Notes: generated by a model not told the origin, from the sequence alone. A DNA stretch of 53,636 bases from an uncultured bacterium (GCA_965364445.1 CBDTXM010000002.1:1-53636), one strand, 5' to 3'; counted from the first letter of the stretch, positions 2,888 through 35,614 are shown. Program-made: numbers and translations.

Positions 2888-3562
2888 TCAATACTCCACC
2901 GACGTGTATCGAAGCGATCGATTCAGCTGCCCGGCGAGAGATGCTCGCTCGTCCACCACATCGAACAGGAAGTCGTTCAGCGCCGGATCTGTCGGCGCCG
3001 TCCGCAGCGCCTCCCGGGACGCCTCGATCAGCGCATCCAGCTTCATCAGCCGCTCGGTCGCCGCCGACGGATCGCTCCACGCCTCGGAACCGGACGCGCC
3101 CTCCCCCCGGAGCCGTTCGATCTCCGCGACGGTTCGCAGATACGCTTCCGTCGCATCGCTCGACCCTACCGCACGCGCATCGACGCCGGGAGACTCGAGG
3201 ATGGCGGTTCTCGCCGGCGGTTCGTCGTCGGTAGACGCCATCTGACGCCCGACACCCAGACCCGCTGCGAACAGAACCACTACGGCCGCCGCCCAGAGCG
3301 GTCGCATGGGGAGCCGTGCAGGGAACGAACGTCGCTGACCGATCCGATCGACGCCCGCTCCCAGCCGCTCGCTGACCCGGTCCCATTCGTCGGCCGGCGG
3401 CTCGAGTTCCGGCATCGCCGAAAGCGCCATGCGGACGCGAACCATCTGCTCGTATTCGTGCGTGCACGCTTCGCAGTCCTCCAGGTGTGCCCGGTCCGGA
3501 CCGAGTTCGTCCGGCCCATCCAGGAGGGCCGCGATCCGTTCTCTGCTCAGGTGCTCAACCAT
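2888..3562 (-). CDS. Anti-sigma factor (zf-HC2 type, single-pass membrane protein)
   Basis: The N-terminal H-x3-C-x2-C motif (AHLEDCEAC) is typical of ECF anti-sigma factors. It has a central hydrophobic helix PLWAAAVVVLFAAGLGVG. Its ATG overlaps the end of the ECF sigma gene by 8 nt. Confidence 0.75.
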   Translation of the reverse strand: MVEHLSRERIAALLDGPDELGPDRAHLEDCEACTHEYEQMVRVRMALSAMPELEPPADEWDRVSERLGAGVDRIGQRRSFPARLPMRPLWAAAVVVLFAAGLGVGRQMASTDDEPPARTAILESPGVDARAVGSSDATEAYLRTVAEIERLRGEGASGSEAWSDPSAATERLMKLDALIEASREALRTAPTDPALNDFLFDVVDERASLAGQLNRSLRYTSVEY

Positions 3563-4154
3563 GATATCCCGCTTCGTTCCTTCCCTCTCTTGGAGACAGC
3601 AGATCGCGCATCCGGGCGCGCGCCTTGTGCAATTGGGATTTCGACGTACCGATCGCCACGCCCAGCTGTTCCGCGATTTCCTCGTGCGTCATGCCTTCGA
3701 CGTCATGCATCACCAGCACCTTTCGATATCCCTCGGGCAGACGATCCAGAGCCTGGCCCAGCACCCGCTGGTTGAGGATCCGATCGTCGGGCTCCGGCGG
3801 GACCGCTGGAGGCTCGGCCGCCGATTCCACGTCGGGCCTTCGCCCCTGGCGGCGCAGCCGGTTCAGCGCCGTGTTCACGGCCAGGCGGTGCATCCAGGTC
3901 CCGAACGCGGCCTCGCCGCGGAACGAGCCGAGCTTCTCGAAGGCCCTGACCCACGCGTCCTGCGAGACGTCCTCGGCGAGGTGGTCATCCCCGACCAATC
4001 GGCGCACCACGCTGTACACCCGGCCGGAGTGCTCCCTGTAGAGGGACTCCATGGCCCGGGCATCGCCGGCGCGGGCTGCCGCGAGCAGCCGGGCGTCGGT
4101 CACCGGGGACCCGTCGAGTCTTCCATGTTCACCAACCGTTTGGACCTTCGACAT
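3555..4154 (-). CDS. ECF-type RNA polymerase sigma-70 family factor
   Basis: 199 aa with region 2 (GRVYSVVRRLVGDDHLAEDVSQDAWVRAF) and region 4 HTH (EGMTHEEIAEQLGVAIGTSKSQLHKARARM). Confidence 0.9.
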   Translation of the reverse strand: MSKVQTVGEHGRLDGSPVTDARLLAAARAGDARAMESLYREHSGRVYSVVRRLVGDDHLAEDVSQDAWVRAFEKLGSFRGEAAFGTWMHRLAVNTALNRLRRQGRRPDVESAAEPPAVPPEPDDRILNQRVLGQALDRLPEGYRKVLVMHDVEGMTHEEIAEQLGVAIGTSKSQLHKARARMRDLLSPREGRNEAGYHG

Positions 4155-4233: not shown

Positions 4234-5142
4234 TCAGGGCCGGGGGCCGAGCCTCCGGATCAGGGGAGGCGTCGCGAAGAACGCGGTCAGGGCCCACACG
4301 AGACCGGCCGCCATGTCGATGCCGTAGTGGAATCGACCGTAGACGGTTCCGAGTGTGAGTGACACCGCGAAGGGGGCCAGGATCCAGAATGCGCGCTTGT
4401 TCACCGAGCCGCAGGCGAACCAGGCCGAACAGGTGGCCGCTACGTGAGAGCTCGGGAAGGCGGTTCCCTTCGAGGAGCCGCTCTCGAGGATCGAGTGCAC
4501 GAGGCCGAAAATCACGCCGTCGGACGGAGGGCCCGTAATCTTCGGAAAGTCGTAACGCGGCCCGGCCACGGGAAACACGGCGAAGCAGAGGTAGCAGAGG
4601 AAAAACCCCAGCGCGGTCGTGAACGCGGCCCGCTCGAGTCCCTCCTTCCCGGCGGCGCGCCAGGATGCGATCAGGGCGGCCGGCACCACCAGGTAGTAGG
4701 ACACGTAGCCAAAATGCAGCGCCTCGGAGAACCAGCGATTCGGAATCCAGTCGCTCGCCGTGACGCTGAGCTGAACCCCGAACAGCGCTTCCTCCCAGAT
4801 CTGAACGGCGGGGTCGAAGTATCCGGGAAACAGGAGCTGATTGAGCGTCGCCAGCTCCATGTAGAAGACGGGCGTCACGGCGACGGGATAAGCGATCCTG
4901 AGAAACGAGGCGATCGTTCCGGTCGGTCGCGGCAGCTTTCCGAGTACGAGAACGGCCCCGATCCCGAACAGGTGAAGCAGCGCGATCCATGCGCCGGTCT
5001 CGGTGCGCGATACGAGCGCTATGATCGCGGTCGCCGCGAGGTATGCCGCGGTCAGTACGTCGACGGTCAGCGGGGCGGAGCGGTCGAGCCCGAGGTCGTC
5101 GGGCAGATGAGCCACGGATCCCGCGTTCGGAATGTCAGCCAT
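4234..5142 (-). CDS. PAP2-superfamily integral membrane enzyme (lipid phosphatase / phospho-head-group transferase type)
   Basis: 302 aa, multi-pass hydrophobic. Carries PAP2 acid-phosphatase motifs FPSSHVAAT and GRFHYGIDMAAG near the C-terminus. Confidence 0.8.
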   Translation of the reverse strand: MADIPNAGSVAHLPDDLGLDRSAPLTVDVLTAAYLAATAIIALVSRTETGAWIALLHLFGIGAVLVLGKLPRPTGTIASFLRIAYPVAVTPVFYMELATLNQLLFPGYFDPAVQIWEEALFGVQLSVTASDWIPNRWFSEALHFGYVSYYLVVPAALIASWRAAGKEGLERAAFTTALGFFLCYLCFAVFPVAGPRYDFPKITGPPSDGVIFGLVHSILESGSSKGTAFPSSHVAATCSAWFACGSVNKRAFWILAPFAVSLTLGTVYGRFHYGIDMAAGLVWALTAFFATPPLIRRLGPRP

Positions 5143-5151
5143 CAGATCTCC

Positions 5152-6117
5152 TCATCGACGCAACCATCCCTTTTCTCGATACCAGGCCGCGGACTCCGTC
5201 AGTCCCTCCTGAAGCGTCACGGCGGGGCGCCAGCCCAGAGCGCGCTCGATCGGGTCGAGCTCGCAGGTCCAGTCGAGACGGGTCAAATCAATGGCCCGTC
5301 TCCGATCGAGATCAGGGGCCCGTCTCAGCAACTTCGCCGCCAGCTCGCCGAAGGTGCCCGCGGCGAGAAACAGAGACGCCGGAATCCGCACCGGGCGAAC
5401 CTCACGGCCGACGGCTGCACCAAGCGCGGCCGCGATCTCCTCCCAGGAATGCACATCCGGTCCACCGATAGCCAGCGGTCCAGCGATCTCGGACTCGTCG
5501 CCCAGCGCCCGCAAGACGGCCGCGGCCACGTCGGCTGCGTAGACCGGCTGCAGGCGTCCAACGACCCCGGGGACAGGAACGAATCCGCTCGCTGCGAGTC
5601 GGAACAGGGGCAGCAGATCGGTGTCCCGCGGTCCGTACACGCCTCCCGGACGGAGCACCCGCGCCTGCATTCGGCTCGCCGATTCCACCACGCTCGCCAG
5701 CCGTCGCTCGGCTTCCAGCTTGCTGGCGCCGTACGGACTTGCCGGACCACGGCCGCCGTCCGGGCCTCGCGCGGCGAGGCTGCTGACCAGCACGAAGCGT
5801 CGCACGCTCGCTTGCGCCGCTGCCGTGGCAATGATCTCGGTGATCTCGGCATTCACGAAGAAGTAATCTGATTCGTAGCGCGCCCTCGTGAGCCCGGCCG
5901 CATGCACGACGTGCTCGACCCCCTCGAGCGCAGCCTGCAGCATCGATCGCGACGACAGGTCGATGGTGATCGTCTCGATCTCGCTGCCCTCGAGCCACCT
6001 GGTGTCGCTCGTCGCTCGAATCGCACAGCGAACCCGATACCCGGCCCGCACGAGGGACTCGGCCACGTGACTGCCGACGAACCCCGTTGCGCCTGTCAGG
6101 AATACGAGCGAAGACAC
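5152..6117 (-). CDS. NAD(P)-dependent epimerase/dehydratase-type extended SDR
   Basis: N-terminal Rossmann motif FLTGATGFVGSHV and catalytic YGASK. 321 aa. Confidence 0.9.
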   Translation of the reverse strand: MSSLVFLTGATGFVGSHVAESLVRAGYRVRCAIRATSDTRWLEGSEIETITIDLSSRSMLQAALEGVEHVVHAAGLTRARYESDYFFVNAEITEIIATAAAQASVRRFVLVSSLAARGPDGGRGPASPYGASKLEAERRLASVVESASRMQARVLRPGGVYGPRDTDLLPLFRLAASGFVPVPGVVGRLQPVYAADVAAAVLRALGDESEIAGPLAIGGPDVHSWEEIAAALGAAVGREVRPVRIPASLFLAAGTFGELAAKLLRRAPDLDRRRAIDLTRLDWTCELDPIERALGWRPAVTLQEGLTESAAWYREKGWLRR

Positions 6118-6124
6118 GGCCGTC

Positions 6125-7252
6125 TCAGATCGGCCGGTCGTACAGCAGATAACGCTTCGAGATCTCCGATCCGATGCGTTCGAGCGGCTTCCGCATCGCC
6201 GCGTTGTCCTCGAGGATCCAGGAGAACTCGCCCCCGATCGTGCCCGCCGCGCCGCCGTGCCGGAACAGGGCCATGATCAGGAGGTTGTCGATGCCCTGGC
6301 CACGCGCCTCGGGAACGAGCCCCAGGGTGAGAACCCGGCAGTAGTCCATCTTCGGAAGGTACTTCAGGATCTTGAACAGGCCGAAGGGAAACAGCCTGCC
6401 CCTGGCATGAATCAGGGCCTGGTTCGCATCCATGAGAAAGAGCGTGAACCCTATCACCTCTCCATCGTCCCGTTCGGCGAAGATCACCTGGCTCGGAATC
6501 CGCTTCACCAGCGGCTTCAGCTCGTGGGCCATGAAATCGATCTCGGCATCCGTCATCGGGACGAATCCCCAGTTGTCTTCCCAGGCCTTGTTGTACAGGA
6601 CGCGCAGCCGCTCCAGCTCTTCCTCGAAGTGCGCCATGTCGATGGTGCGGGTGCGGACGCCCAGCCTCTTCTCGAGCTTCGACTCCAGCTTGACCAGCTT
6701 CTCGGGAGGCACGCTGTGCGACAGATGATACGCTATGAGACTCTGCGATCTTTCGAATCCGGCCCCTTCGACGAGGTCGACGTAATACTCCGGATTGTAG
6801 GGCATCATCACTGTCGGCGGACGATCGAAACCCATGACCAGCAGCCCGGCCATCTCGTTGAGCGAGAATGAGGTCGGACCCCGCATCGTCTCCAGGTCTC
6901 GCTCGCTGAGCCACCCCGCGACCCGGTCGAAGAGCGCGCCGGCTACCTCGGGATCGTTCTCCGACTCGAAATAGCCGAAGAATCCGACCGGCTCCTCGTG
7001 ATAGGCGACGTGATTCCGGTTGTTGATCGCTGCGATCCGCCCGACCGCTCGGCCGTCGCGGTAGGCTACGAAGGGCTGCACTTCGGAGTGTCGATGGAAC
7101 GGATGCTTCTTCTTGTTGAAGGCCGTCTTCACGTCCCGCAACAGGGGTGCGACCCACCTGGGGTCGCCCTCGTAGATCGCATACGGCAGGTGCAGGAAGT
7201 CTCGAAACCGGCGTCGGTCATCCGCAGGGAGTACCTCGATGCGGCCCGGCAT
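6125..7252 (-). CDS. GNAT-fold N-acyltransferase-like protein of unknown specificity
   Basis: The ORF track gives 6125..7282 with a GTG start. I prefer the ATG at 7252 (MPGRIEVLPADDRRRFRDFLHLPYAIYEGDPRWVAPLL), which begins 5 nt after the upstream stop instead of overlapping it by 25 nt. The C-terminal half (LGLVPEARGQGIDNLLI...) looks like an acyl-CoA N-acyltransferase fold. Confidence 0.7.
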   Translation of the reverse strand: MPGRIEVLPADDRRRFRDFLHLPYAIYEGDPRWVAPLLRDVKTAFNKKKHPFHRHSEVQPFVAYRDGRAVGRIAAINNRNHVAYHEEPVGFFGYFESENDPEVAGALFDRVAGWLSERDLETMRGPTSFSLNEMAGLLVMGFDRPPTVMMPYNPEYYVDLVEGAGFERSQSLIAYHLSHSVPPEKLVKLESKLEKRLGVRTRTIDMAHFEEELERLRVLYNKAWEDNWGFVPMTDAEIDFMAHELKPLVKRIPSQVIFAERDDGEVIGFTLFLMDANQALIHARGRLFPFGLFKILKYLPKMDYCRVLTLGLVPEARGQGIDNLLIMALFRHGGAAGTIGGEFSWILEDNAAMRKPLERIGSEISKRYLLYDRPI

Positions 7253-7257
7253 TCCGC

Positions 7258-8439
7258 TCACAGGACGCCGTACTTCGTACACACCTTCTCGAGAACCTCG
7301 AGCACGAAGTCCAGCTGCTCATCCGTGTGCGTCGCCATGTAGCTGGTCCTGAGCCGGCAGCTGCCCTCGGGCACGGCCGGCGGAACCACCGGGTTGGTGA
7401 ACACCCCGGCGTCGAGGATTTCGCGCCAGACCTTGAAGGTCAGGTCCATGGGTCCAATCAGGAGCGGAATGATCGGCGTCTCGGTGGGACCGATCTCGAA
7501 TCCCAGCGCGGTGAGCTCGGCCATCATCCGCCGGGTGTTCTTCCACAGCCGCTCGCGTCGATCCGGCTCGGTACGGATGATCTGGAGCGCCGCCCGCACC
7601 GTCGCCACGGCAGACGGCGGCATGCTCGCACTGAAGATCTCGGTGCGCGCGTGGTTGCGCAGGTAATCGATCACGATGTCGTCGCCGGCCACGAAGCCGC
7701 CGATCGAAGCGAGCGACTTGGAGAACGTGCCCGTGATGAGGTCGACCTCGTCGGTGAGCCCGAAGTGGGCGGCCGTCCCTTCGCCATTGGGACCCAGGAC
7801 ACCGAGCGAGTGCGCGTCGTCCACCATGATCGCGGCGTCGTACTTCTTCACCAGCGGCACCAGTTCCGGAAGGTTGACGATGTCGCCTTCCATGCTGTAC
7901 ACGCCGTCGACGGCGACGAGCTTGCCGCGTGCCGGGTCGGTGTCCCGCAGCAGGGCTTCCAGGTGCGCGTAGTCCTCGTGTCGGAATCGCTGGGTATCCC
8001 CGAAGCTCAACCTGGCACCGTCCTGGATGCAGGCGTGGTCGAGCTTGTCGAGGTACGCCGTGTCGCTCCGACCGACGAGCGCGCTGACGACGCCGAGGTT
8101 CGTCTGGTACCCGGTGCTGAACACCAGTGCGGCTTCCTTGCCGGTGAACTCGGCGAGTTCTTCTTCGAGCAAGTCGTGGATATCGAGGTTCCCGTTCAGG
8201 AACCGGCTTCCGGTGTTGCCGCTTCCATACACCTCGAGAGCGACGCGCGCCGCCTCGAGAATCTGGGGATGGTGCGTGAGGCCCATGTAGTTGTTCGAGC
8301 CGACCATCACCTTCCGATGGCCGTCGATCACAACCTCTGTATCCTGCGATTCCGTGATCTTCTGGAAGTAGGGGTACATGCCCGCCGCGCGGGCTTCGCG
8401 CGCGGCGGTGAATGCGGCGCACTTGTCGAAAAGGTGCAT
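7258..8439 (-). CDS. PLP-dependent alpha-oxoamine synthase, serine-palmitoyltransferase-like
   Basis: 393 aa. Motifs GSNNYMGL, GSGNTGSRFLNG, VFSTGYQTNLG, RFRH, GVYSMEGDI, VDDAHSLGVLGPNGEG, GTFSKS (PLP lysine) and ERLWKN match bacterial Spt as I recall it better than KBL or BioF. Confidence 0.9.
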   Translation of the reverse strand: MHLFDKCAAFTAAREARAAGMYPYFQKITESQDTEVVIDGHRKVMVGSNNYMGLTHHPQILEAARVALEVYGSGNTGSRFLNGNLDIHDLLEEELAEFTGKEAALVFSTGYQTNLGVVSALVGRSDTAYLDKLDHACIQDGARLSFGDTQRFRHEDYAHLEALLRDTDPARGKLVAVDGVYSMEGDIVNLPELVPLVKKYDAAIMVDDAHSLGVLGPNGEGTAAHFGLTDEVDLITGTFSKSLASIGGFVAGDDIVIDYLRNHARTEIFSASMPPSAVATVRAALQIIRTEPDRRERLWKNTRRMMAELTALGFEIGPTETPIIPLLIGPMDLTFKVWREILDAGVFTNPVVPPAVPEGSCRLRTSYMATHTDEQLDFVLEVLEKVCTKYGVL

Positions 8440-8671
8440 CCGGTGCGTCCTCCGGAGGGGTTTTCGTGGCCGGGCCGCTCTCCGTGGAGAGCCCCGATCC
8501 GACCCGCAGAAGCTACCCGAGCGCTACGGGCCCGGCAAGAAACGTCAGTTCGCGGAATGGCTGAGACTTCCGAGACCGCTGCCGGGTTCTCGAAGCGGTC
8601 CCGTGCCGCAGCGAGCCGGGGGCCAGCGCTTGCCCGCGGGCCGTGGAGGGAGCATCCTCCGCGGCGTGAAA

Positions 8672-9772
8672 ATGGTGAATGCAACTTCGCAGGGGCTCGT
8701 CTCCCGGACGGTCCTGTGGATCCGCCGGCGGGCCCTGGTCGCCCTTCTTCCCGCAGCTCTTGGCGCCTGCGCATCGAGCTCCTCGGGCGATCCGGGACTG
8801 CCGTCGCCCGTGGCCGTACCGGGGTCCGTGGCGGCCGACTCGGTCGGGGAACCCTTCGAGCCGGACGCCGACGCCGCACTGCGAGACGCGGACGATCTGC
8901 GTGCCATGGCTGCGGCGGCAAGGGCAGCAGAGGCCGAACGCCCCCGGTCGATTCTGCCATTCGGTGTGACCTGGGCGCCCGCCGCCCGGGAAGGTTCGGC
9001 GTTCGGCATCCGGGTGCTCGAGAGACCGTCCGGTCGCAAGCCCACATCGATTTCGGGAGAATTTGCAGGCCTTCCCGTTCGTTTCGGGAGACTGGACGGA
9101 CACTGGTTCGGACTCGCTGCCGTCCCGATCGACACCGAGGGACGGCCCGAGCTTCGGCTGCGGTTCGAGTTCGACGACGGCTCCGCCCACGAGCAGACGG
9201 TGCCGATCTCCGTCGCCTCGCGGACATTCCAGAAGTCCCAGCTCACGGTAGCACCGAAGTATTCCTCGCCCTCGGCCGAGGCGATGAATCGGATCCAGGA
9301 GGAGCGGGCGTTGGTTCGATCCGTTCTGGACACCGCGAGTGCCGAGTGGCTGATCGACACCTCGTTCCGTGCACCCAGGCCCCTGGACGTGACCAGCCCG
9401 TACGGAGTGGAACGGGTGTTCAATGGGGAGCTTCGAAGCCGTCACACCGGGCTCGATCTGAGGGGTGCGACCGGTGCGCCGGTCCGCGCTGCAGCCCGCG
9501 GAAGGGTCATGATCGCCCGCGATCTCTACTTCTCGGGCAACGGTGTGTACCTCGATCACGGCCGGGGTGTGTACACGGGGTATTTTCACCTGTCCCGAAT
9601 CCTGGTGGAGGAGGGGGAACTGGTCGAAGCCGGCCAGTTGGTGGGCGAAGTCGGGGCGACGGGTCGGGTGACGGGACCACACCTTCACTGGTCGCTCTGG
9701 GTCGGGGGAACGAGCCTGGACGCGGGCAGCCTGCTCGAGATGTCGGTCCCGGTCGCCGGCGAGACTCCCTGA
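8672..9772 (+). CDS. M23 (LytM) family metallopeptidase lipoprotein
   Basis: The ORF-track entry 8378..9772 was trimmed to the ATG at 8672 (MVNATSQGLVSRTVLWIRRRALVALLPAALGAC, lipobox). M23 motifs are HTGLDL and TGPHLHWSL. Confidence 0.85.
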   Translation: MVNATSQGLVSRTVLWIRRRALVALLPAALGACASSSSGDPGLPSPVAVPGSVAADSVGEPFEPDADAALRDADDLRAMAAAARAAEAERPRSILPFGVTWAPAAREGSAFGIRVLERPSGRKPTSISGEFAGLPVRFGRLDGHWFGLAAVPIDTEGRPELRLRFEFDDGSAHEQTVPISVASRTFQKSQLTVAPKYSSPSAEAMNRIQEERALVRSVLDTASAEWLIDTSFRAPRPLDVTSPYGVERVFNGELRSRHTGLDLRGATGAPVRAAARGRVMIARDLYFSGNGVYLDHGRGVYTGYFHLSRILVEEGELVEAGQLVGEVGATGRVTGPHLHWSLWVGGTSLDAGSLLEMSVPVAGETP

Positions 9773-9850
9773 TTCAAGAGGCTCCCGCTTGCCCCTCCCG
9801 GTGGTGCCGGTCACTTTCCCGTTCCGAATTCACCTACACGGCGAAGCACT

Positions 9851-11494
9851 ATGATCAGGATCGCACTCGTACTCGGTGGCGGCGTCTCTCTCGGCTCCTA
9901 CATAGGCGGCGCCGTAACCGAAATCCTGGAGGCCCTGGCTCGAAACGAGTCGGGCCGGCCCGTCAGGATCCACGTCATCACGGGCGGCTCCGCCGGCGCG
10001 CTCAATGCGGGGCTCGCCGCCCGGGCGCTCGCGGTGAATCCGGCTGTCGTTCCCTGGATCGAGAAAGCGTGGGTCGAAGCGGCGGATGCGCGACACCTGC
10101 TGAACCCGGGTCGAAGCAACCGGCTGGGAGCGCTGGACGCGACGGTGATGGATGATCTTTCGCGCGCCCTGATCACGGCGGAGCCGGCATCCGACGATGC
10201 CGTTTCGGCCTCGCTCGGGACTCCGCTTCGCGTCGGCATCACGCTGTCGAACCTGCATGGCGTTCGATACGACTTCCGCTACGGTTTCCTGAACGTGCCG
10301 GACCGTGCCTACGGCACGCGAACGTACTCCGACTCGATCGAGTTCGAACTGCCAGCGGGCATCGGCCCCAAGCACGAGAGCTGGGAGCGGCTTCGCGCCG
10401 CCGCCGTCGCCTCGGCGGCGTTTCCCTTCGCCTTTCCGCCGCGGCAGCTGGAACGGACCCGTGCAGAGTACCCGGGCGCCCGACTGGCCGGCGGCGTGGA
10501 CCCACTTCCGATGTGGTACGTGGACGGCGGACTCTTCGACGCGGCACCCCTCGGGCTTGCCAAGGACCTGGTCGAAAGGGATGCGGATTACCGGTCGCAG
10601 GACTGGCGGTTCATCGTCGTCGAGCCTTCCCTGCGAAGCACGGGCACGGAGCACGGATCCCCGTCGGGCGCTCCCGACTCGGTCTCCTCGCTCGCGCAGC
10701 ACCTCGCCGGTGCCGTGCTCGGGCAGGGTGCCGCCCAGGACTGGATTCGGGCCAACGAGCTCAACGCCCGACTGGAGATTCTCGAGGCGCTGCTCAAGCG
10801 TCTTCCGGAGATGGACGATCGTATCACGGATCCCGACGAGCTGATGCTGGGTCGCTACATCGGCGAGCTCGCCGAGCGGGTGGCCGAGATGAAGGTCACG
10901 GCGGATCCGACGGGCCGGCTGGTTCAGGGTCCGGATCCAGCCGGTGACTTCCTGGATCGGAACATGGATCGGATCGAGTCTGATCCGAGATACGCCGAGG
11001 TGCTCGCTTCAGCGGACGCGCGGGCGGGTCGTTCGCGTCTCGCCAAGCTGATCTTCGTACTCGAGGCGGCGAGCGGGCTTCAGGACAAGGACATCATGCG
11101 CCTCTACCTGGTCGCTCCCGAGTCCGACCGGGAGCTGGCCGGCGACTACCTCGGTGGATTCGGCGGATTCCTGCATCGAGACTGGCGGGCGCATGATTTC
11201 GCGGCCGGCAGACGCGACGCGCGTCGGATGGTAGAGACGGGCCTGTCGGACGTCGTTCGTTACCGGCCGGCCGAGCCCGCCGTCTACGATGTCTCAGAGG
11301 TCTCGCCCGCGTGGAGTCAGGTTCCGGCCGAGAGCCGGAGGCAAGTCGAGGCGGCGGTCGCGGCCGAAGCCGATCGGCTGATCGCGGAATTCGAGCCCGG
11401 TGCGGTCGCGTCGGCGCTCGGCTGGGCGTGGAAGCCGGTGGTGCGCCGGTGGATCACGGCGCGGGGGATGCGGGCCATCTCCGAAGCCCGCTGA
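9851..11494 (+). CDS. Patatin-like phospholipase with long C-terminal helical domain (DUF3376-like)
   Basis: Oxyanion motif VLGGGVSLGSY, nucleophile elbow GGSAG and catalytic Asp in YVDGGL. The C-terminus FGGFLHRDWRAHDFAAGRRDA resembles the patatin-associated DUF3376 region. Confidence 0.9.
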   Translation: MIRIALVLGGGVSLGSYIGGAVTEILEALARNESGRPVRIHVITGGSAGALNAGLAARALAVNPAVVPWIEKAWVEAADARHLLNPGRSNRLGALDATVMDDLSRALITAEPASDDAVSASLGTPLRVGITLSNLHGVRYDFRYGFLNVPDRAYGTRTYSDSIEFELPAGIGPKHESWERLRAAAVASAAFPFAFPPRQLERTRAEYPGARLAGGVDPLPMWYVDGGLFDAAPLGLAKDLVERDADYRSQDWRFIVVEPSLRSTGTEHGSPSGAPDSVSSLAQHLAGAVLGQGAAQDWIRANELNARLEILEALLKRLPEMDDRITDPDELMLGRYIGELAERVAEMKVTADPTGRLVQGPDPAGDFLDRNMDRIESDPRYAEVLASADARAGRSRLAKLIFVLEAASGLQDKDIMRLYLVAPESDRELAGDYLGGFGGFLHRDWRAHDFAAGRRDARRMVETGLSDVVRYRPAEPAVYDVSEVSPAWSQVPAESRRQVEAAVAAEADRLIAEFEPGAVASALGWAWKPVVRRWITARGMRAISEAR

Positions 11495-11548: not shown

Positions 11549-13552
11549 TCAGCTGCCGGGATCGAAACCGGCCAGCTTCCCGGCGAACGCCGACGCCAGC
11601 ACCGTGAAGGGGCTTGCGAGGTAGACCTTACCGGGACCGCTTCGACCCGGGAAGTTCCGGTTGATCGAACTCACGGTCACCTGGTCCGGCGATCCGCTCA
11701 CGCCCGGTCCCGCGTTGATGCAGGCCCCGCAACCCGGAGCCAGAACGCGGATTCCCGATTCCACGAACCGGTCGTGCCATCCCTGCTCGTGCGCATACTT
11801 CTCCACATCCAGGGAGCCGTACTGCAGGTAGGCCTCCACGTGGTCCGCCACCCGGCGGCCCTCGGCAAGCGCGGAATCGACCACGCGTACCGCCATCTCC
11901 ACGTCATCCCGTTTCGCGCCGGTGCACGAGCCGGCATAGACGATGTCGACCGGAACATCGCCGACCTCGCTCACGCTGACGCCATTTCCCGGATCCCCGG
12001 GCGTAGCCACCATAGGAGCGATCGATGAGGCGTCGATCGTCATCGTCCACTCGTACTCGGCACCCGGATCACTCTCCAGGCCGTTCACGAGTCCCCTCGC
12101 CTCCGCGGGGTCCATCCCGCGGCGCTCGACGAGGAAGTCCACCGTCTTACCGTCCGGCGCTACGATGCCCGTGAACCCGCCGACCTCGGCCGCCATGTTC
12201 GTCATTGTGGCCCGTTCGTCCACGCTCAGCGCCCGTACGGCTTCTCCGCCGTACTCGAGGATCTTCCCGATCGCCTCTCCGTCCCGAACGTAAGGGTGCC
12301 GGAGAATCTCCAGCATCAGGTCCTTCGCGGTCACGCCCGGTGCAAGCCGACCGGTGACCTCGACGCGTACCGACGCCGGCACCCGGAGGCGAACGTCACG
12401 GGTAGTCCAGCTGTTGACGATCGCGGTCGTCCCCACACCGAAGGCGACGCACCCGATCGCACCTGAATGCGGCGTGTGAGAGTCACTGCCGACGATCACC
12501 TGCCCGGGGAGTGCGTACTCGTCCAGCATCTTCACGTGACAGATCGCCTCGCTGCCCACCCGGTCCGGGAGCTCACCGTGCAGGCGGACTCCCTGCTGGG
12601 CCGCAAACTCCCGCTGACGGTCATGCAGACCGTGCGCTGCGTCCAGCAGACCGAGCTTGATCTTCTCCTCGCTGATGACCTGGTCGAGGAACGCGAGGTG
12701 GTCGCGGAAGAAGAGGACGCTGTCCCGGTCCGCGATCGGCGCACCTTCGCCCGCGAACTCCTCCCAGAAGGTCGAGGCCATCGGGGTCACGTACTCGTGG
12801 CTGAACCGCAGGTCGCAGCGGACGAATCCCGCGTCGCCGGGCTTCACGGCGGGTACGCCCACTTCGTCGCCAGCCAGGTCCACGACCCAGTGACGAGCCA
12901 GAATCTTCTCGGCGACGGTCATCGGTCGCTGCTCATCGGTGATGACGGCCGGTACCTGAACGAGTCCCTTCAGCCGGGCAACCGCGTAGTCGAGCAGCCC
13001 CCCGTACTCGATGATGTCGCGCTGTATCTGTCCGGCTTCTCCGATGAACGTCTCGAGCGGGATCTCCTCGCCGCTCCGAATCCGGTCGATGACCGAGAAG
13101 TCCGTCGTCGTCAGGATTCCGAGGTTCTCGCAATTCTCGCGATAGATCCGCTCGATGTTCTCCGCGATCACCACGCGAATCCCTGCCGCCCTTTCGGCAT
13201 ACGGAGAGGCCTCCCGGCTCGAGCCCTTCCCCCGGCGCTTGCCGGAGACGGCCGCCACGAATCCTCCGCCGATGACATCGCCCTTGCCGATCGGTTGCTC
13301 GCCCTCGCAGCGCAGGCCGACGTAGGGGTACTGCCCCAGAGTCTCGTCGTAGTAGTAGCAGACCCAGGCCGGGGTGATCTCGTCTGTGGAGATGTTGTCG
13401 CGCAGGGGGATCGAGGGATCCCACTCCAGGTCCTCGCCTGCAAGCTGGCGGCGGATCAGCTCGGGATCCTCGGTCAGAAAGAGGATCCGTCCGGAGAGGC
13501 GAACCGTAGATGGCCGCTTCTTCACTTCGCGGGCGAGCAATGTGTCGAGCAT
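11549..13552 (-). CDS. Aconitase-family Fe-S hydro-lyase, fused and permuted (LeuD-like swivel domain N-terminal to LeuC-like catalytic domains)
   Basis: Start moved to the ATG at 13552 (MLDTLLAREV), preceded by GGAGA 8 nt upstream. N-terminal NISTDEITPA ... VVIAENIERIYRENCENLGIL matches the small-subunit type. It is followed by VGSDSHTPHSGAIGCVAFGVGTT, YAGSCTGAK and PGCGACINAG (three cluster cysteines). Confidence 0.85.
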   Translation of the reverse strand: MLDTLLAREVKKRPSTVRLSGRILFLTEDPELIRRQLAGEDLEWDPSIPLRDNISTDEITPAWVCYYYDETLGQYPYVGLRCEGEQPIGKGDVIGGGFVAAVSGKRRGKGSSREASPYAERAAGIRVVIAENIERIYRENCENLGILTTTDFSVIDRIRSGEEIPLETFIGEAGQIQRDIIEYGGLLDYAVARLKGLVQVPAVITDEQRPMTVAEKILARHWVVDLAGDEVGVPAVKPGDAGFVRCDLRFSHEYVTPMASTFWEEFAGEGAPIADRDSVLFFRDHLAFLDQVISEEKIKLGLLDAAHGLHDRQREFAAQQGVRLHGELPDRVGSEAICHVKMLDEYALPGQVIVGSDSHTPHSGAIGCVAFGVGTTAIVNSWTTRDVRLRVPASVRVEVTGRLAPGVTAKDLMLEILRHPYVRDGEAIGKILEYGGEAVRALSVDERATMTNMAAEVGGFTGIVAPDGKTVDFLVERRGMDPAEARGLVNGLESDPGAEYEWTMTIDASSIAPMVATPGDPGNGVSVSEVGDVPVDIVYAGSCTGAKRDDVEMAVRVVDSALAEGRRVADHVEAYLQYGSLDVEKYAHEQGWHDRFVESGIRVLAPGCGACINAGPGVSGSPDQVTVSSINRNFPGRSGPGKVYLASPFTVLASAFAGKLAGFDPGS

Positions 13553-13741
13553 AGAACGTCTCCGTTGACGGAACCTCCCGGGCCAGCCCGGGGCGCGATC
13601 CCGGCGGTCCCATCCGCGCGTGGCGGTCCCGCCGGAAGGGCGCACAATCTATGAACGCCGGCGATTGCCTGCGAGTCGATCTCGCGCCCGATCCGCCGAC
13701 CGACCATCTTCGAGCCGGCGATCCGGAGTTCCTCTGGGGGG

Positions 13742-14867: not shown

Positions 14868-15899
14868 GTGAGCCTGAGTTCGCTCGGTCGTGAAGACATG
14901 CGTGCCCTCTACCGCTTCCTCGTCCTCACGCGGATGCTCGAGGAGCGGCTGGAGACCCTGTTCAAACAGGGACACATCGTCGGCGGTCTGTACCGTTCGC
15001 TCGGCCAGGAGGCGACGGCCGTGGGCAGTGCCTACGCGTTGCAGGAGGGAGATTGGCTCGCTCCCTCGATCCGCGATGCGGGCGCACTCTACGTGCGGGG
15101 TCTGCCGCCGATCGCGATGCTCCGCCAGTACACGGCGCGCGAGGCCTCCCCCTGCGCCGGGAAGGACAATACGAACCACTTCACGATTCCGGAGTTGGGC
15201 CTGCTCGGGCCGATCAGCCCTCTGGGCACCCAGCTCTGCGTGCTCAACGGCGTGTCCCTGACCTTCCGACAGCGGGGTGAACCGCGTGTCTGCATGACCT
15301 ACCAGGGCGAGGGGGCCTCCCGGACAGGCACGTCCCACGAGGGCTTCGCGATGGCAGCCGCACTGGACTTGCCCATCGTGATCGTTCTGGAGCACAACCG
15401 GTGGTCGTTCGGAACGCCCAGCTACCGGGCTTCGGCCGTCGAGGACTGGGCGGACACCGCGGGCGCGTACGGGCTTCCGGTTCGATCGGTCGATGGCAAC
15501 GACATCCTGGAGGTCTACGAAGCGGCGCGTGAGGCGGTCGATCGTGCCCGGTCCGGCGGGGGGCCCGGCGTGATCGTAGCCGAGACCTACCGGATGTCCG
15601 GGCACGCGCAGCATGACTCCCAGAAGTACATTCCGCCCGAAGAACTGGAGGAATGGAGGGCGCGAGACCCGATCCGCAGGTTCGAGAGCGTGCTGGAGCA
15701 GGACGGTTGGCTCTCGGAGGCCGGGCTCGCGGAGATACGCGACGACGTAGAGCAGGAGCTCACGCGAGCCGTGGACACCGTGCTCTCCGAACCGCATCCG
15801 CCGGCCGAATCGAGTCGAACGCGTGTATACGCGGACCCAGAGCAGGATCCGCCCGAGCCGTGGACGCGAATCCTGGCCACCGAATCCGAGGCACGATGA
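14868..15899 (+). CDS. 2-oxoacid dehydrogenase E1 component, alpha subunit (TPP-dependent)
   Basis: 343 aa. Segments LGQEA...APSIRD, YQGEGASRTG and YRMSGHAQHD are typical of heterotetrameric E1 alpha. The alternative ATG at 14898 is also possible. Confidence 0.9.
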   Translation: MSLSSLGREDMRALYRFLVLTRMLEERLETLFKQGHIVGGLYRSLGQEATAVGSAYALQEGDWLAPSIRDAGALYVRGLPPIAMLRQYTAREASPCAGKDNTNHFTIPELGLLGPISPLGTQLCVLNGVSLTFRQRGEPRVCMTYQGEGASRTGTSHEGFAMAAALDLPIVIVLEHNRWSFGTPSYRASAVEDWADTAGAYGLPVRSVDGNDILEVYEAAREAVDRARSGGGPGVIVAETYRMSGHAQHDSQKYIPPEELEEWRARDPIRRFESVLEQDGWLSEAGLAEIRDDVEQELTRAVDTVLSEPHPPAESSRTRVYADPEQDPPEPWTRILATESEAR

Positions 15900-16876
15900 G
15901 CGAGACGACGTATCTCGAGGCGATCCGGGACGCGATGCGTGAAGAGATGCAGCGCGACGAATCGGTGTTCATTCTCGGCGAGGACATCGGCCTGTATGGG
16001 GGCGCATTCAAGATCACGGATGGGTTCCTGGAGGAATTCGGTCCGGACAGGGTGATCGACACTCCGATCAGCGAGGCCGCCATTGTGGGTGCGGCGATCG
16101 GCGCCGCCCACATGGGCATGCGTCCGATCGCCGAGATGCAGTTCATCGACTTCATCGCGCCGGCCTTCGACATGATCGTCAACTTCGCGGCCAAGTCCCG
16201 CTACCGGACGGGCATCGGCGCCGGAATCGTCATCCGCGGGCCGTGCGGAGGTGGGGCGCGCTCGGGTCCCTTCCACTCGCAGAACGTGGAGTCGTTCTTC
16301 GCGAACGTGCCGGGCCTGAAGATGGTGGCGCCCGCGACCGCGCGTGACGCCAAGGGTTTGCTGACAGCGGCGATTCGCGATCCGGACCCGGTCCTGTATT
16401 TCGAGCACAAATTCCTCTACCGGCGGATCAAGGAAGAGATCGAGCCCGGCGAGGAGATCGTGGTGCCACTGGGCGAAGCGCGCACACACCGACCGGGCAC
16501 GGATCTGACGATCGCGACCTACGGGGCCATGGTCTGGAAGGCCGGTGAAGCGGCAGATCGTGTGTCGTCGGAAGACGGTTCGGAGATCGAAATCATCGAT
16601 CTTCGCTCGATCCGACCGCTCGACATCGGCTCGATCGTGGAGAGCGTGCGCCGCACCGGTCGCCTGCTCGTGGTGCACGAGGCCCCCAGGTTCGGTGGAT
16701 TCGCCGGCGAGATCACGGCGCAGGTTTGCGAAGAGGCATTCGAGTGGCTCGACGCGCCGATCCGGCGGGTCACGGCCATGGATACGCCCGTGCCCTACGC
16801 GCCGACCCTGGAGGATCGTTACCTACCGCAGACCGAGGACATCGTCGCGGCCGCGAGATGGCTGCTCGCATACTGA
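15896..16876 (+). CDS. 2-oxoacid dehydrogenase E1 component, beta subunit
   Basis: Trimmed to MSETTYLEAIRDAMREEMQRDESVFILGEDIG. It has an ATGA start/stop overlap with the alpha subunit. Confidence 0.95.
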   Translation: MSETTYLEAIRDAMREEMQRDESVFILGEDIGLYGGAFKITDGFLEEFGPDRVIDTPISEAAIVGAAIGAAHMGMRPIAEMQFIDFIAPAFDMIVNFAAKSRYRTGIGAGIVIRGPCGGGARSGPFHSQNVESFFANVPGLKMVAPATARDAKGLLTAAIRDPDPVLYFEHKFLYRRIKEEIEPGEEIVVPLGEARTHRPGTDLTIATYGAMVWKAGEAADRVSSEDGSEIEIIDLRSIRPLDIGSIVESVRRTGRLLVVHEAPRFGGFAGEITAQVCEEAFEWLDAPIRRVTAMDTPVPYAPTLEDRYLPQTEDIVAAARWLLAY

Positions 16877-16894
16877 CCAGAAGGGAAGAGTGAG

Positions 16895-18355
16895 ATGGCA
16901 AAGGTCGACGTGATCATGCCCCAGATGGGTGAGTCCATCGCCGAGGGCACCCTGACGAAGTGGCTCAAGCAGGTCGGCGAGAGCATCGAACGCGACGAGG
17001 ACCTGTTCGAGATCTCGACGGACAAGGTGGACGCGGACATTCCTTCGCCTGCGAGCGGCACGCTGGTGGAGGTGCTCGTCGAGGAGGGAGCCACCGTCGA
17101 GGTGAACACGGTCGTGGCGAGGATCGAGACCGAGGCCGGCGCCGCTGACGCGGCGGTCGCGACGGAGGCGGCTCCCGCTGGCGCTGCCGAACAGGGCCAG
17201 ACGGAGACCGCGGCCGCCGAAGCACCGCAGGCCGAAGCCGGGCCTGCACCCGCTCCCGCTCCTGCGGCGACCGGTGGATCTGACGACGGCGCAGCCGCCC
17301 CCGCGCCGCCATCCGAGCCGGGCTCGAAGGAGGAGAGGCTGCGGACGCGGAGCACCCCGCTCGTGAGGAAGATCGCGGAAGAGCATGGGGTCGACATATC
17401 GGCCGTTCAGGGCACGGGGGTCTCAGGCCGGGTCACCCGTGACGACATCACCGCGTACATCGACGCCCGGGACAGGGGCGAGACACCCGCCGTGACCGCT
17501 CCAGCGCCTGGTGGCGCGGCCCCGACGACCGGCGGCGCGCCCGCAGGAGGGGCTCCCGCTCCCGCCCCGGCACAGCCCGGCCACATGCAGGTGCCCATTC
17601 ACGGCGCGACGCTCGACATTCGGATTCCCGCCGTACCGATTCGCGATGGGGACCGGGTCGAGGAGATGAACCGGGTCCGGCTCCGCACGATGGAGCACAT
17701 GCTGATGTCGAAGCGGATCTCGGCGCACGTCACCTCGGTCAACGAGATCGACTTCGAGCGCGTCGTGAACCTCCGCAGGACCCTCAAGGGCAAGTTCGCC
17801 GAGCAGGGCGTCAAGTTGACCTACGGTCCGTTCATCATGAAGGCGGTCACGGAGGCCCTGCAGGAGTATCCGATTCTCAACTCGTCCGTCGACGGCACGA
17901 GAATCGTCTACCACAACGATATCAACATCGGCATCGCCGTAGCGGTGAACGATGGCAAGGAACTCATCGTCCCGGTGCTCAAGAATGCCGATCGCCTTTC
18001 GCTGATGGGCCTGGCAGCTGGTGCGAACGAACTCGCCGAGAAGGCGCGCACGAAGACTCTGGATTTCGACGACATCCAGGGGGGAACCTTCACCATCACG
18101 AATGTGGGTGTGTTCGGGAACCTGTTCGGAACCCCGATCGTCAATCAGCCTCAGGTCGCCATCCTCGGCACGGGGGTCATCGAGAAGCGTCCCGTGGTCA
18201 TCCGGGATGCGATGGGCAACGACGCGCTCGGCATCCGGCACATGTCGTACTTCGGACTCAGCTACGATCATCGTGTCGTGGACGGAGCGATGGCCGCGTT
18301 CTTCCTCAACAAGGTGAAGGACGTCCTGGAGAATTTCCCGGAGGACGCCGTCTGA
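16895..18355 (+). CDS. 2-oxoacid dehydrogenase E2 component (dihydrolipoamide acyltransferase)
   Basis: Lipoyl domain (EISTDKVDADIPSP), Ala/Pro linkers, E3-binding domain (STPLVRKIAEEHGVDIS) and catalytic domain (SYDHRVVDGA). Confidence 0.95.
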   Translation: MAKVDVIMPQMGESIAEGTLTKWLKQVGESIERDEDLFEISTDKVDADIPSPASGTLVEVLVEEGATVEVNTVVARIETEAGAADAAVATEAAPAGAAEQGQTETAAAEAPQAEAGPAPAPAPAATGGSDDGAAAPAPPSEPGSKEERLRTRSTPLVRKIAEEHGVDISAVQGTGVSGRVTRDDITAYIDARDRGETPAVTAPAPGGAAPTTGGAPAGGAPAPAPAQPGHMQVPIHGATLDIRIPAVPIRDGDRVEEMNRVRLRTMEHMLMSKRISAHVTSVNEIDFERVVNLRRTLKGKFAEQGVKLTYGPFIMKAVTEALQEYPILNSSVDGTRIVYHNDINIGIAVAVNDGKELIVPVLKNADRLSLMGLAAGANELAEKARTKTLDFDDIQGGTFTITNVGVFGNLFGTPIVNQPQVAILGTGVIEKRPVVIRDAMGNDALGIRHMSYFGLSYDHRVVDGAMAAFFLNKVKDVLENFPEDAV

Positions 18356-28289: not shown

Positions 28290-29078
28290 TCATGACCTGC
28301 CGGAGACCCAGGGCAAGGGATCCACCGGCTCTCCGTCCTGTTCGATCTCCAGGTGAAGGTGGGGCGCGGTAGATCGACCCGTATTGCCCGACAGGGCAAT
28401 CACTTCGCCGGCTTCCACCGTGTCGCCCTCTGCGGCGAACACCCAGGATGCGTGTGCGTACAGTGAGCGAAGACCATCGCCGTGCTCGATCCTGACATAG
28501 CGACCATACTCCCTGTCCTCGCCCGCTTCATCGACCACGCCGGCCCCCGCCGCACGGATGTAGGAGCCCGAAGGCACGGCAATATCCAGTCCGACATGGC
28601 CGCCATCGCGGACTGAAGACGTATCTCCGAAGGCCCGCGTGACGAAGCCGGGCTCGACCAGAGGCCAGAGTCGCGGACCGGGCTCGTACTCGGATTCGGG
28701 CCGTGTCGTCCCTCCACTCCGCGACTCGGTCGATCCAACCGCCGGCAGCAGGATGTCTCCAGCGGAGGGTTCGACTTCACCGGTCATGACGCCTCGCAGC
28801 TGATCGTAGGAGCGTTCCATCTCCGTCAGGGTCGCCGCGAGACGCTCGATCTTCGCCGTCTCCCCCTGAAGAGAGTCGATGCGAGATTCCAGTTCCGCCA
28901 CCCTGGCTGGCGTTTGCAGAGACGCCGCCCATCGACCGGCGGCGAAGGAGCCGAGAACGCCGGCGACCGCGACGAACCCGAGCAGAAGCATCCTGAGAGG
29001 GCTGAGCACGAACCGGTGCGACTGCGCCTCACCTTCGCGCACGAACAGCACGTTCCACCGGCCGCCGGATGACGTCAT
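28290..29078 (-). CDS. Bitopic M23 (LytM) endopeptidase with N-terminal anchor and coiled coil
   Basis: TM segment LLLGFVAVAGVLGSFAAG, coiled coil ELESRIDSLQGETAKIERLAATLTEMERSYDQL, and M23 motifs HVGLDI and APHLHLE. ATGA overlap with the parB stop. Confidence 0.9.
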   Translation of the reverse strand: MTSSGGRWNVLFVREGEAQSHRFVLSPLRMLLLGFVAVAGVLGSFAAGRWAASLQTPARVAELESRIDSLQGETAKIERLAATLTEMERSYDQLRGVMTGEVEPSAGDILLPAVGSTESRSGGTTRPESEYEPGPRLWPLVEPGFVTRAFGDTSSVRDGGHVGLDIAVPSGSYIRAAGAGVVDEAGEDREYGRYVRIEHGDGLRSLYAHASWVFAAEGDTVEAGEVIALSGNTGRSTAPHLHLEIEQDGEPVDPLPWVSGRS

Positions 29079-29986
29079 ACGTCCTCGAACAACTCCGCGG
29101 AATCGCGGGCTTCGAGCATACGCCTGATGATCCGCTCGAAGTCCTCGGCGTCGTGGAATGGAATCCTGATTTCCCCTGCCGCCTTGCTCCGGAGCCTGAC
29201 CTTCACGTCGGTTCCGAAGTACCGGGCCAGTGCCGTCGCCGCCCTGCGCGCGACGGGATCGCCCTCACCGCCGCCCGTACGACCGGAAGCGTTCCGTCCG
29301 GCGCCCCCGGCACGATCAGGTCCGCCGCGTGCGCGTCGCTCCGCCTCGCGGACGGACAGCCCTTCGGCGGCGATCCGTCGCGCGAGCTGAAGTTTCGCGG
29401 CGTCCGAGTCAAGCGACAGCACGGCCCGAGCGTGCCCGGCGCTGAGTGCCCCTGAGGCGAGCATCTCCTGAACTTCGGGTGGCAACGTGAGCAGACGAAG
29501 GCTGTTCGCGACTGTCGATCGACTGCGTCCGACCCGACCCGCCACCTGATTCTGGGTCAGGCCGAATCCGTCGATCAGACGCTGATAAGCCACCGCCTCC
29601 TCGATCGCATTGAGCTCTTCACGTTGAAGGTTCTCCACCAGGGCCAGCAGCAGCATCTGCTCGTCCGAGAGGTCCCTGACGATCACCGGAGCCGTTTTCC
29701 GGCCGAGGCCGGTGAGAGCACGCAGTCGGCGTTCGCCCGCAACCAGCTCGTAGCCCGTGTCTGTCGGACGAACAACCAGCGGTTGCAGCAGACCGTTCTC
29801 GCGGATGGAAGCCTCGAGTTCGCTCAGAGCCTCAGGGTCGAATTCGCGGCGTGGCTGAAACGGATTCGCGCGGATTCGCTTCAGCTCGATATCGCGGACC
29901 GGCTGCTCGTCCAGCTCCTGCTCATCGAGCATGTCCCCCAGCAACGCCCCAAGGCCGCGCCCAAGTCTGTTCTTCGTGTCAGGCAA
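29075..29986 (-). CDS. parB: Chromosome partitioning protein ParB/Spo0J
   Basis: ParB box LLQPLVVRP...YELVAGERRLRA, HTH QNQVAGRVGRSRSTVANSLRLL. 303 aa. Confidence 0.95.
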   Translation of the reverse strand: MPDTKNRLGRGLGALLGDMLDEQELDEQPVRDIELKRIRANPFQPRREFDPEALSELEASIRENGLLQPLVVRPTDTGYELVAGERRLRALTGLGRKTAPVIVRDLSDEQMLLLALVENLQREELNAIEEAVAYQRLIDGFGLTQNQVAGRVGRSRSTVANSLRLLTLPPEVQEMLASGALSAGHARAVLSLDSDAAKLQLARRIAAEGLSVREAERRARGGPDRAGGAGRNASGRTGGGEGDPVARRAATALARYFGTDVKVRLRSKAAGEIRIPFHDAEDFERIIRRMLEARDSAELFEDV

Positions 29987-30770: not shown

Positions 30771-30941
30771 CGGCGCCCCGTGGCTCCTGGTTCGAGATCG
30801 TATGATGTGGCACACAGCAACGTCCGGTGGGGCCGGCGCCTCGCCGTCCTCACGCCCTCAGCCCGGGCGCGTTCGCACGCGCCCGTCTCGCCGGGCCCCG
30901 AATATACCCAAGAGGGGTCGAGACGCCAACAAACAGGGAAT

Positions 30942-30957
30942 TGTTGCACGTGCAACA
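30942..30957. other. parS site (perfect 16-bp palindrome)
   Basis: TGTTGCACGTGCAACA, compared with the consensus TGTTNCACGTGAAACA. It is intergenic between mnmG and parA. Confidence 0.8.
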
Positions 30958-30963
30958 GCTACG

Positions 30964-30980
30964 GTCGGGCCCGCCCCGAC
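30964..30980 (-). terminator. Short GC hairpin right after the mnmG stop
   Basis: GTCGGG ... CCCGAC forms a 6-bp stem with a 4-5 nt loop. There is no U-tract. Confidence 0.3.
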
Positions 30981-32894: not shown

Positions 32895-33002
32895 GCCGTC
32901 GCGTACCCCTCCATTCGTCGCCAGATTCGAGTTCGCGGTCCGACCCCCGGGACTCGAGACGGGCGATCGCCCTCGAAGATCGCGAAGATAGGCAGGGAGG
33001 CC

Positions 33003-33290: not shown

Positions 33291-33363
33291 CGGCACCTTT
33301 TCGGATTCAGGGTGTATTGCGCCCTCGTAAACGGACTTCTGAATGCCTTCTGAGGATCAACTG

Positions 33364-35595: not shown

Positions 35596-35614
35596 TACCG
35601 CCGCCCTCCCGGAA

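Follow-up and report, generated by a model that had tools for sequence, protein, structure and literature searches.

A predicted phosphosphingolipid operon with an AUR1-type PAP2 enzyme in marine benthic Gemmatimonadota

What four tightly packed genes on the minus strand of an uncultured bacterium could produce together is the question raised by positions 4,234 to 8,439 of GCA_965364445.1 CBDTXM010000002.1:1-53636, a stretch of 53,636 nucleotides (nt) that, taken at its whole length, is called the window below. A preliminary description had read these genes, in the order of transcription, as a serine palmitoyltransferase (Spt), a GNAT-fold acyltransferase, an extended short-chain dehydrogenase/reductase (SDR) and a PAP2 membrane enzyme, and the cassette as one that could make a head-group-modified sphingolipid. 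Our analysis of family assignments, synteny, motifs and fold supports this overall reading: the four genes probably form one phosphosphingolipid operon of marine benthic Gemmatimonadota. That genes 1 to 3 make ceramide is very likely, and gene 4 appears, on balance, to encode a ceramide phosphotransferase.

The four open reading frames (ORFs) lie at 7258..8439 (gene 1, 393 amino acids (aa)), 6125..7282 (gene 2, counted from the most upstream GTG), 5152..6117 (gene 3, 321 aa) and 4234..5142 (gene 4, 302 aa). Genes 2 and 3 are separated by 7 nt (6118-6124) and genes 3 and 4 by 9 nt (5143-5151). The start of gene 2 is ambiguous. Taking the ATG at 7252 gives the gap of 5 nt to gene 1 described earlier, and with it the full 5, 7 and 9 nt spacing agrees with the coordinates; the alternative GTG at 7261 matches the 378 aa called in close relatives and creates a 4-nt overlap with the stop codon of Spt. 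Tight coupling of gene 2 to gene 1 is implied under both starts. The G+C content of the third codon position (GC3, 0.77-0.87) far exceeds that of the second (GC2, 0.39-0.55) in all four ORFs, which is the pattern of real genes in a 66% G+C genome. The Pfam matches of the four products (Aminotran_1_2, E=4e-55; Acetyltransf_1, 25.6 bits with a cut-off of 20.7; Epimerase, E=2e-28; PAP2_3, 51.8 bits with a cut-off of 27) bear out the four proposed fold classes, aminotransferase, GNAT, epimerase/SDR and PAP2. All motifs quoted in the preliminary description were recovered from the translations: GSNNYMGL, GSGNTGSRFLNG, VFSTGYQTNLG, RFRH, GVYSMEGDI, GTFSKS and ERLWKN in the synthase, GATGFVGS and YGASK in the SDR, and FPSSHVAAT and GRFHYGIDMAAG in the PAP2 protein. 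The nearest public relatives are metagenome-assembled genomes (MAGs) of the "marine benthic group" of Gemmatimonadota, the closest being Candidatus Carthagonibacter metallireducens with 91-95% protein identity across the block. We regard the block as a real, tightly packed four-gene operon of an uncultured marine-sediment Gemmatimonadota bacterium.

Conservation of this arrangement was followed through the PAP2 gene. A scan with a PAP2 profile, at one genome per species, found 134 relatives, the best 80 of which belong taxonomically to Gemmatimonadota bins except for one labelled Akkermansiaceae. The order Spt-GNAT-SDR-PAP2 was colinear in 62/62 Gemmatimonadota loci whose sequence extends more than 3.6 kb beyond the PAP2 gene on its upstream side, with identities falling as low as 65% for Spt, 48% for the GNAT, 44% for the SDR and 45% for the PAP2 protein. 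The four-gene block is thus conserved in related genomes, and its arrangement is not due to chance. The bin labelled Akkermansiaceae (L022, CAXMRU010000057.1) carries the whole Gemmatimonadota-type block in the same order, together with the sigma factor and LuxE genes described below, at 47-76% identity; this contig is probably mis-binned.

Gene 1 (7258..8439, minus strand) encodes an alpha-oxoamine synthase dependent on pyridoxal phosphate (PLP), and its match to PF00155 spans residues 43-382. The PLP lysine lies within GTFSKS, a motif that is aligned in the Sphingobacterium Spt. Among NCBIfam models, the protein scores 539 bits with SerpalmtaseCFB, 406 with the beta-proteobacterial Spt, 397 with bioF, 364 with KBL, 264 with ALAS and 229 with CqsA, so that the CFB-type Spt model beats the BioF, KBL, ALAS and CqsA models by 140-310 bits. 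The top solved relative is the Spt of Sphingobacterium multivorum (3a2b/8guh, 439 bits), with about 55% identity over residues 4-387 as counted from the printed alignment. The best BioF/KBL entry among other solved structures reaches 314 bits, followed by Sphingomonas Spt entries (292-298 bits), KBL (268), cysteate acyltransferase (239) and BioF (219). By both score comparisons the synthase groups with Spt rather than with KBL or BioF, as had been recognised from its motifs, and gene 1 is assigned as a serine palmitoyltransferase of the Bacteroidota (CFB) type.

Gene 2 (6125..7261, minus strand; 378 aa with the GTG at 7261 as start, 375 aa with the ATG at 7252) encodes a tandem-GNAT N-acyltransferase (PF00583) of the YghO family and is a candidate bacterial ceramide synthase (bCerS). 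A sequence search of solved structures returned nothing meaningful for this protein and no NCBIfam model matched it; its AlphaFold model (pLDDT 83.9) is best matched by the tandem-GNAT structures 2wpw and 7q3a (Foldseek E~1e-14). Homologues turned up when annotated plasmid and chromid records were searched in translation. Over the full length, gene 2 shares 34-40% identity with GNAT proteins linked to Spt genes in Sphingomonas, E. coli, Streptomyces, Rubrobacter, Aureispira and Nonomuraea, including 35% with that of the Sphingomonas parapaucimobilis cluster (E=4e-66) and 34% with E. coli YghO (E=4e-52). The synthases of these last two clusters pass curated Spt equivalog models, the alpha-proteobacterial one for S. 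parapaucimobilis (833 bits, cut-off 670) and the beta-proteobacterial one for E. coli (600 bits, cut-off 500). Furthermore, natural fusions of an alpha-oxoamine synthase with a YghO-type GNAT, the synthase coming first, occur among the cluster representatives (P0127, 780 aa; P0252, 648 aa). Another representative, P0121 (784 aa), has two stretches matching gene 2 and two GNAT-domain matches and looks like a tandem GNAT duplication.

Gene 3 (5152..6117, minus strand) encodes an NDUFA9-like extended SDR (PF01370) and is a candidate ceramide reductase (CerR). The protein carries the GxxGxxG nucleotide-binding motif (GATGFVGS) and the catalytic YxxxK (YGASK), and its best solved relatives are NDUFA9-type proteins (56-74 bits); the CerR of Caulobacter has itself been described as NDUFA9-like. 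Identity to the epimerase-type reductases of Spt clusters is 28-54% from end to end. The individual end-to-end values are 54% for Rubrobacter (E=1e-93), 34% for Sphingomonas (1e-36), 30% for E. coli (1e-35), 34% for Streptomyces (5e-33) and 25% for Bacteroides finegoldii (1e-37), and a C-terminal (D)W(T/S/Q)(C/A) motif is common to gene 3 and the aligned cluster and Bacteroides SDRs.

Linkage of the same gene types recurs in other bacteria. Streptomyces (L008) has synthase, GNAT and epimerase genes and Rubrobacter (L003) synthase, GNAT and SDR genes, both in the order of the window. In Aureispira (L002) an opposite-strand SDR gene is followed by synthase and GNAT, and in Nonomuraea (L090) synthase, GNAT, SDR and PAP2 genes are clustered. 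The S. parapaucimobilis cluster (L006) runs NAD-binding protein, acyl carrier protein (ACP), synthase, ATP-binding protein, LptF/G, desaturase and GNAT, and the E. coli cluster (L005, NZ_MG591698.1, 4480-10077) runs fatty acyl-AMP ligase, epimerase, ACP and synthase, with yghO adjoining on the opposite strand. LptF/G paralogues also occur in this E. coli neighbourhood, where all genes are generically named; as a whole it has the look of a full ceramide gene set of the Caulobacter type. Public database names of the GNAT, SDR and PAP2 genes of such clusters are generic as well ("N-acetyltransferase", "YghO", "epimerase", "phosphatase PAP2") and give no functional lead. The homologues in the Sphingomonas, E. 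coli, Streptomyces, Rubrobacter and Nonomuraea clusters support the earlier view of genes 2 and 3 as bCerS and CerR types.

The gene that follows the synthase-GNAT-SDR core differs between these clusters: it encodes a protein of the LTA-synthase/sulfatase family in Rubrobacter (L003, 10245-12314), a condensation-domain protein in Streptomyces (L008, 10042-11289), and in Nonomuraea a PAP2_3 protein and an MMPL transporter follow (L090, 8603-11615). Such variation suggests that a shared ceramide core is combined with different modules for head groups or export. The Nonomuraea PAP2_3 protein, which adjoins the MMPL transporter in the Spt-GNAT-SDR cluster, is a homologue of gene 4, and PAP2_3 genes of the gene 4 subfamily also stand directly after a CerR-like SDR gene, 3 nt on or overlapping, in B. 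finegoldii (L089, 6790-8753; the PAP2_3 protein is WP_237923849.1) and Prevotella (L091, 6657-8669).

Gene 4 itself (4234..5142, minus strand) encodes an integral membrane enzyme of the AUR1-type PAP2_3 family (PF14378) and is a candidate ceramide phospho-head-group transferase. A PF14360 match of 18.4 bits lies below the cut-off of 27 and covers the C-terminal HYxxD block. The blocks PxxGP, FPSxHV and HYxxDxxxG of the gene 4 subfamily are invariant over three phyla; His233, His272 and Asp276, which are likely the catalytic residues, are invariant both across these phyla and in 34 Gemmatimonadota sequences. By single sequence or with a profile built from Gemmatimonadota only, gene 4 matched no solved structure. 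With a profile of nine sequences from three phyla, the best solved sequence was yeast AUR1 (E=0.0064), whose blocks VFPAAPPWY, AFPSLH and HHYFVD align with VFPVAGPRY, AFPSSH and FHYGID of the gene 4 profile. In a Foldseek search with the AlphaFold model (pLDDT 84.7), AUR1 structures (9vj4, 9ivc) take ranks 1 and 2 with TM 0.54-0.58, probability 1.00 and E~0.07, while PgpB (5jki) reaches TMq 0.39 and SMSr (8ijq) TMq 0.36 at rank 19. Between the two eukaryotic enzyme types to which the PAP2 protein had been likened, AUR1 is thus the closest by profile and predicted fold, and the match to the sphingomyelin synthase (SMS) type is poor. More distant relatives found by translated search come from Phocaeicola, Prevotella, B. 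finegoldii and Nonomuraea, and those of Nonomuraea, Bacteroides and Prevotella that were scanned all pass PF14378 at 61-73 bits. A single-sequence search with the B. finegoldii member matched no solved structure, AUR1 included, which marks the gene 4 subfamily as distinct from AUR1 itself. Gene 4 is best described as a member of a branch of the AUR1 family with a predicted function.

Taken together, the assignments suggest a four-step route. In the first step, Spt would make 3-ketodihydrosphingosine from L-serine and a fatty acyl thioester, probably an acyl-CoA, as the neighbourhood contains no gene for an ACP or an acyl-ACP synthetase. The tandem-GNAT, as the bCerS equivalent, would then N-acylate the long-chain base with an acyl donor that we likewise assign by inference, and the NDUFA9-like SDR, as the CerR equivalent, would reduce the 3-keto group to give dihydroceramide, the order of these two steps being presumed. 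Finally, the AUR1-type PAP2_3 enzyme, acting as a transferase and not as a hydrolase, would take a phospho-head group from a glycerophospholipid via a phospho-histidine intermediate formed with the His-His-Asp triad, and would pass it to the C1 hydroxyl of ceramide with release of diacylglycerol.

Several points weigh against this route. Gene 4 is only remotely similar to AUR1 (18-20% identity, Foldseek E~0.07, profile E~0.006), and PAP2 enzymes also include phosphatases. The Spt score of gene 1 is below the curated equivalog cut-off (539 against 640 bits for NF047600, CFB Spt), which is expected given that the phylum lies outside the seed of this model; the cluster synthases of Aureispira, Rubrobacter and Streptomyces score 487, 444 and 377 bits in the same type of comparison. 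An SDR similarity of about 30% is nonspecific by itself, and as the HpnA model scores gene 3 about equally, at 112 bits, its assignment as CerR leans mainly on synteny. The bCerS and CerR assignments were made indirectly, with the Sphingomonas and E. coli clusters as proxies for the Caulobacter sequences. Moreover, the syntenic loci were selected by their PAP2 gene, so that they do not show PAP2 to be present in every Gemmatimonadota Spt cluster. Among the ORFs of the 53.6-kb window selected by codon-position G+C content, none had a Pfam match to myo-inositol-phosphate synthase or CDP-alcohol phosphatidyltransferase, and we know of no report of sphingolipids from Gemmatimonadota.

If genes 1 to 3 make ceramide, gene 4 might still be a lipid phosphate phosphatase acting on ceramide-1-phosphate, a sphingoid-base phosphate, phosphatidylglycerol phosphate, undecaprenyl diphosphate or lipid A. 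The PAP2 superfamily membership, the weak match to the generic model PF01569 and the place of PgpB-type enzymes as next best solved relatives (profile E~0.1, and second to AUR1 in fold with 5jki) are in line with such an activity. We nevertheless consider it unlikely, since PF14378 scores 51.8 bits on gene 4 against 18.2 for the generic PAP2 model, and since the AUR1 alignment adds a third block (VFPVAGPRY/VFPAAPPWY), upstream of the part covered by the PgpB alignment. Arg196 and Arg270, which we tentatively equate with the arginines typical of PAP2 phosphatases, vary across three phyla; on this mapping, a kept triad with variable arginines speaks more for a transferase like AUR1 or sphingomyelin synthase than for a phosphatase. 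In addition, a Pfam scan of the window ORFs detected no linked lipid kinase gene that would supply a phosphorylated substrate.

A further departure from the sphingolipid route would be a synthase that uses another amino acid, the cassette then yielding an N-acylated amino-ketone or amino-alcohol, in the manner of clusters for secondary metabolites. The sub-cut-off Spt score would suit such a product, some related clusters contain secondary-metabolite-like genes such as the Streptomyces condensation-domain gene, and we know of no characterised product of the E. coli yghO cluster. A non-sphingolipid product is made quite improbable by the roughly 55% identity of the synthase to a characterised Spt, by an Spt score that exceeds that for the cysteate acyltransferase involved in making sulfonolipids by 200 bits, by the occurrence of both the GNAT and the SDR family in the cluster of a classical sphingolipid producer, Sphingomonas, and by the fit of an AUR1-type enzyme to a ceramide acceptor. 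That the four genes are mere neighbours of unrelated function, as the purely generic, fold-level annotations of public records would allow, is effectively refuted by synteny: the order holds in every one of the 62 loci down to a PAP2 identity of 45%, the genes overlap or lie at most 9 nt apart, fusion proteins exist among relatives, and the linkage recurs in other phyla. We therefore retain the phosphosphingolipid operon as the preferred explanation of the locus.

The operon is a further example of a pathway already known in bacteria, with a putative head-group enzyme of the AUR1 family as its last member. If the assignment is true, bacterial sphingolipid synthesis extends to the Gemmatimonadota, which are widespread in soils and sediments and for the most part uncultured; this would bear on how environmental sphingolipid signatures are read. 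As a self-contained unit of four genes without an ACP module, the operon should also be easy to express heterologously.

Expression of the operon might start from a candidate promoter, TTGCCG (8538..8533) and TAGCTT (8515..8510) spaced by 17 nt on the minus strand (8510..8538), with its end 70 nt ahead of the Spt ATG. The pattern [CT]TTGCN-N15-19-T[AT]GCTT recurs upstream of Spt in 41 of 63 regions (the window and the 62 Gemmatimonadota loci), in most cases at a distance of 59-88 nt to the start codon. A generic sigma-70 consensus scan did not flag this pair and gave nothing useful around the operon, and an Rfam scan of the window matched no family. On the same strand, 79 nt downstream of gene 4, lies a gene for an extracytoplasmic function (ECF) sigma factor (3555..4154; Sigma70_r2, Sigma70_r4_2, Sigma70_ECF), and a generic terminator scan detected no terminator-like site between it and the operon. 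It is followed on the minus strand by an anti-sigma-like ORF with no Pfam match (2888..3562), a double-PDZ protein (1746-2888) and a LuxE-type acyl-protein synthetase (509-1723). A homologue of the ECF sigma factor is found on the same strand, at most 800 nt downstream of PAP2, in 63 of 71 loci, and the factor may be co-transcribed with the operon or regulate it. In the relative L001 a LuxC acyl-CoA reductase comes after the sigma/anti-sigma/PDZ/LuxE set, and LuxE is found about 3 kb downstream in many loci; a regulatory or fatty-aldehyde link between these downstream genes and the cassette is possible.

Elsewhere in the window, an M23 peptidase gene is transcribed divergently from the operon (region 8666-11494) and followed by a patatin-like phospholipase with DUF3376 (9851-11494). 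An aconitase-family protein (11549-13645, minus strand) has a permuted domain order, with Aconitase_C (residues 133-179) before the main domain (277-689). A set of 2-oxoacid dehydrogenase E1-alpha, E1-beta and E2 genes at 14868-18355 could supply branched acyl-CoA primers. Genes of chromosomal-origin type occupy 29075-41183 (parB, parA, mnmG, mnmE, yidC, dnaA at 38397-39806 and dnaN at 40080-41183), so that the window spans a likely replication origin. A mobile-element origin of the cassette was considered and rejected, given a uniform composition of about 66% G+C over the window and the presence of dnaA, dnaN and parAB about 30 kb away; the cassette is part of the core chromosome.

Comparison with known systems shows where the operon follows precedent and where it departs from it. 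Ceramide synthesis in Caulobacter crescentus proceeds through Spt, a GNAT-type ceramide synthase and an epimerase-like reductase, reportedly CCNA_01220, bCerS CCNA_01212 and CerR CCNA_01222. The window holds the same three enzyme types, an alpha-oxoamine synthase, a GNAT N-acyltransferase and an NDUFA9-like epimerase-type reductase, and its gene order equals the reaction order reported for Caulobacter. Genes 2 and 3 have full-length homologues in the clusters of Sphingomonas and E. coli, whose layout we take to be Caulobacter-like (reductase-ACP-Spt and, separated by a few genes, the GNAT). In contrast to Caulobacter, the window has no dedicated ACP or acyl-ACP synthetase gene near the operon, its Spt is of the CFB and not of the alpha-proteobacterial type, genes 1 to 3 adjoin one another with translational coupling, an arrangement shared with the actinobacteria Streptomyces and Rubrobacter, and the operon includes a head-group enzyme. 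The E. coli yghO cluster, in which the full-length homologue of gene 2 stands beside a fatty acyl-AMP ligase, an epimerase, an ACP and an Spt-type synthase, is of the proteobacterial type dependent on a dedicated ACP and, unlike the window, is without a PAP2 gene.

For the last step, the preliminary description had pointed to the PAP2-superfamily enzymes with which eukaryotes add phospho-head groups to ceramide. This precedent stands, yet it is not confined to eukaryotes, as the AUR1 homologue BT_1522 of Bacteroides is needed for inositol-phosphoceramide (PMC9246714) and demonstrates bacterial use of the AUR1 family to put a phospho-head group on dihydroceramide. Sphingomyelin synthase and SMSr (PF14360 PAP2_C; 8ijq) would share with gene 4 the proposed chemistry, transfer of a phospholipid head group to ceramide with release of diacylglycerol, and differ from it in the sub-cut-off PF14360 score and the poor structural match. 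Yeast AUR1, the inositol-phosphoceramide synthase (9vj3, 9vj4, 9ivc), and BT_1522 belong with gene 4 to one family, PF14378, and AUR1 and gene 4 have the three motif blocks and the His-His-Asp triad in common. Gene 4 differs from AUR1 in its low identity, its placement in a separate subfamily and the lack of inositol-lipid genes among the scanned window ORFs, and in view of this separate subfamily and gene content we would guess at a head group other than inositol. Our leading guess, somewhat short of an even chance, is phosphoethanolamine, followed by phosphoglycerol or phosphoinositol.

In Bacteroides, phosphoethanolamine-dihydroceramide, a major phosphosphingolipid of gut species that lacks inositol, was unaltered by deletion of BT_1522, so that a separate synthase must exist, which was not identified in that study (PMC9246714). 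The PAP2_3 gene found directly behind the CerR-like SDR gene in Bacteroides is a candidate for making this lipid, and its linkage with ceramide genes across three phyla makes the PAP2_3 subfamily a candidate for the bacterial synthase of phosphosphingolipids without inositol. We tentatively propose, as a minority possibility under which the Gemmatimonadota, abundant in soils and marine sediments, would be unrecognised producers of phosphosphingolipids, that the uncharacterised AUR1-family branch to which gene 4 belongs is the missing bacterial ceramide-phosphoethanolamine (or ceramide-phosphoglycerol) synthase.

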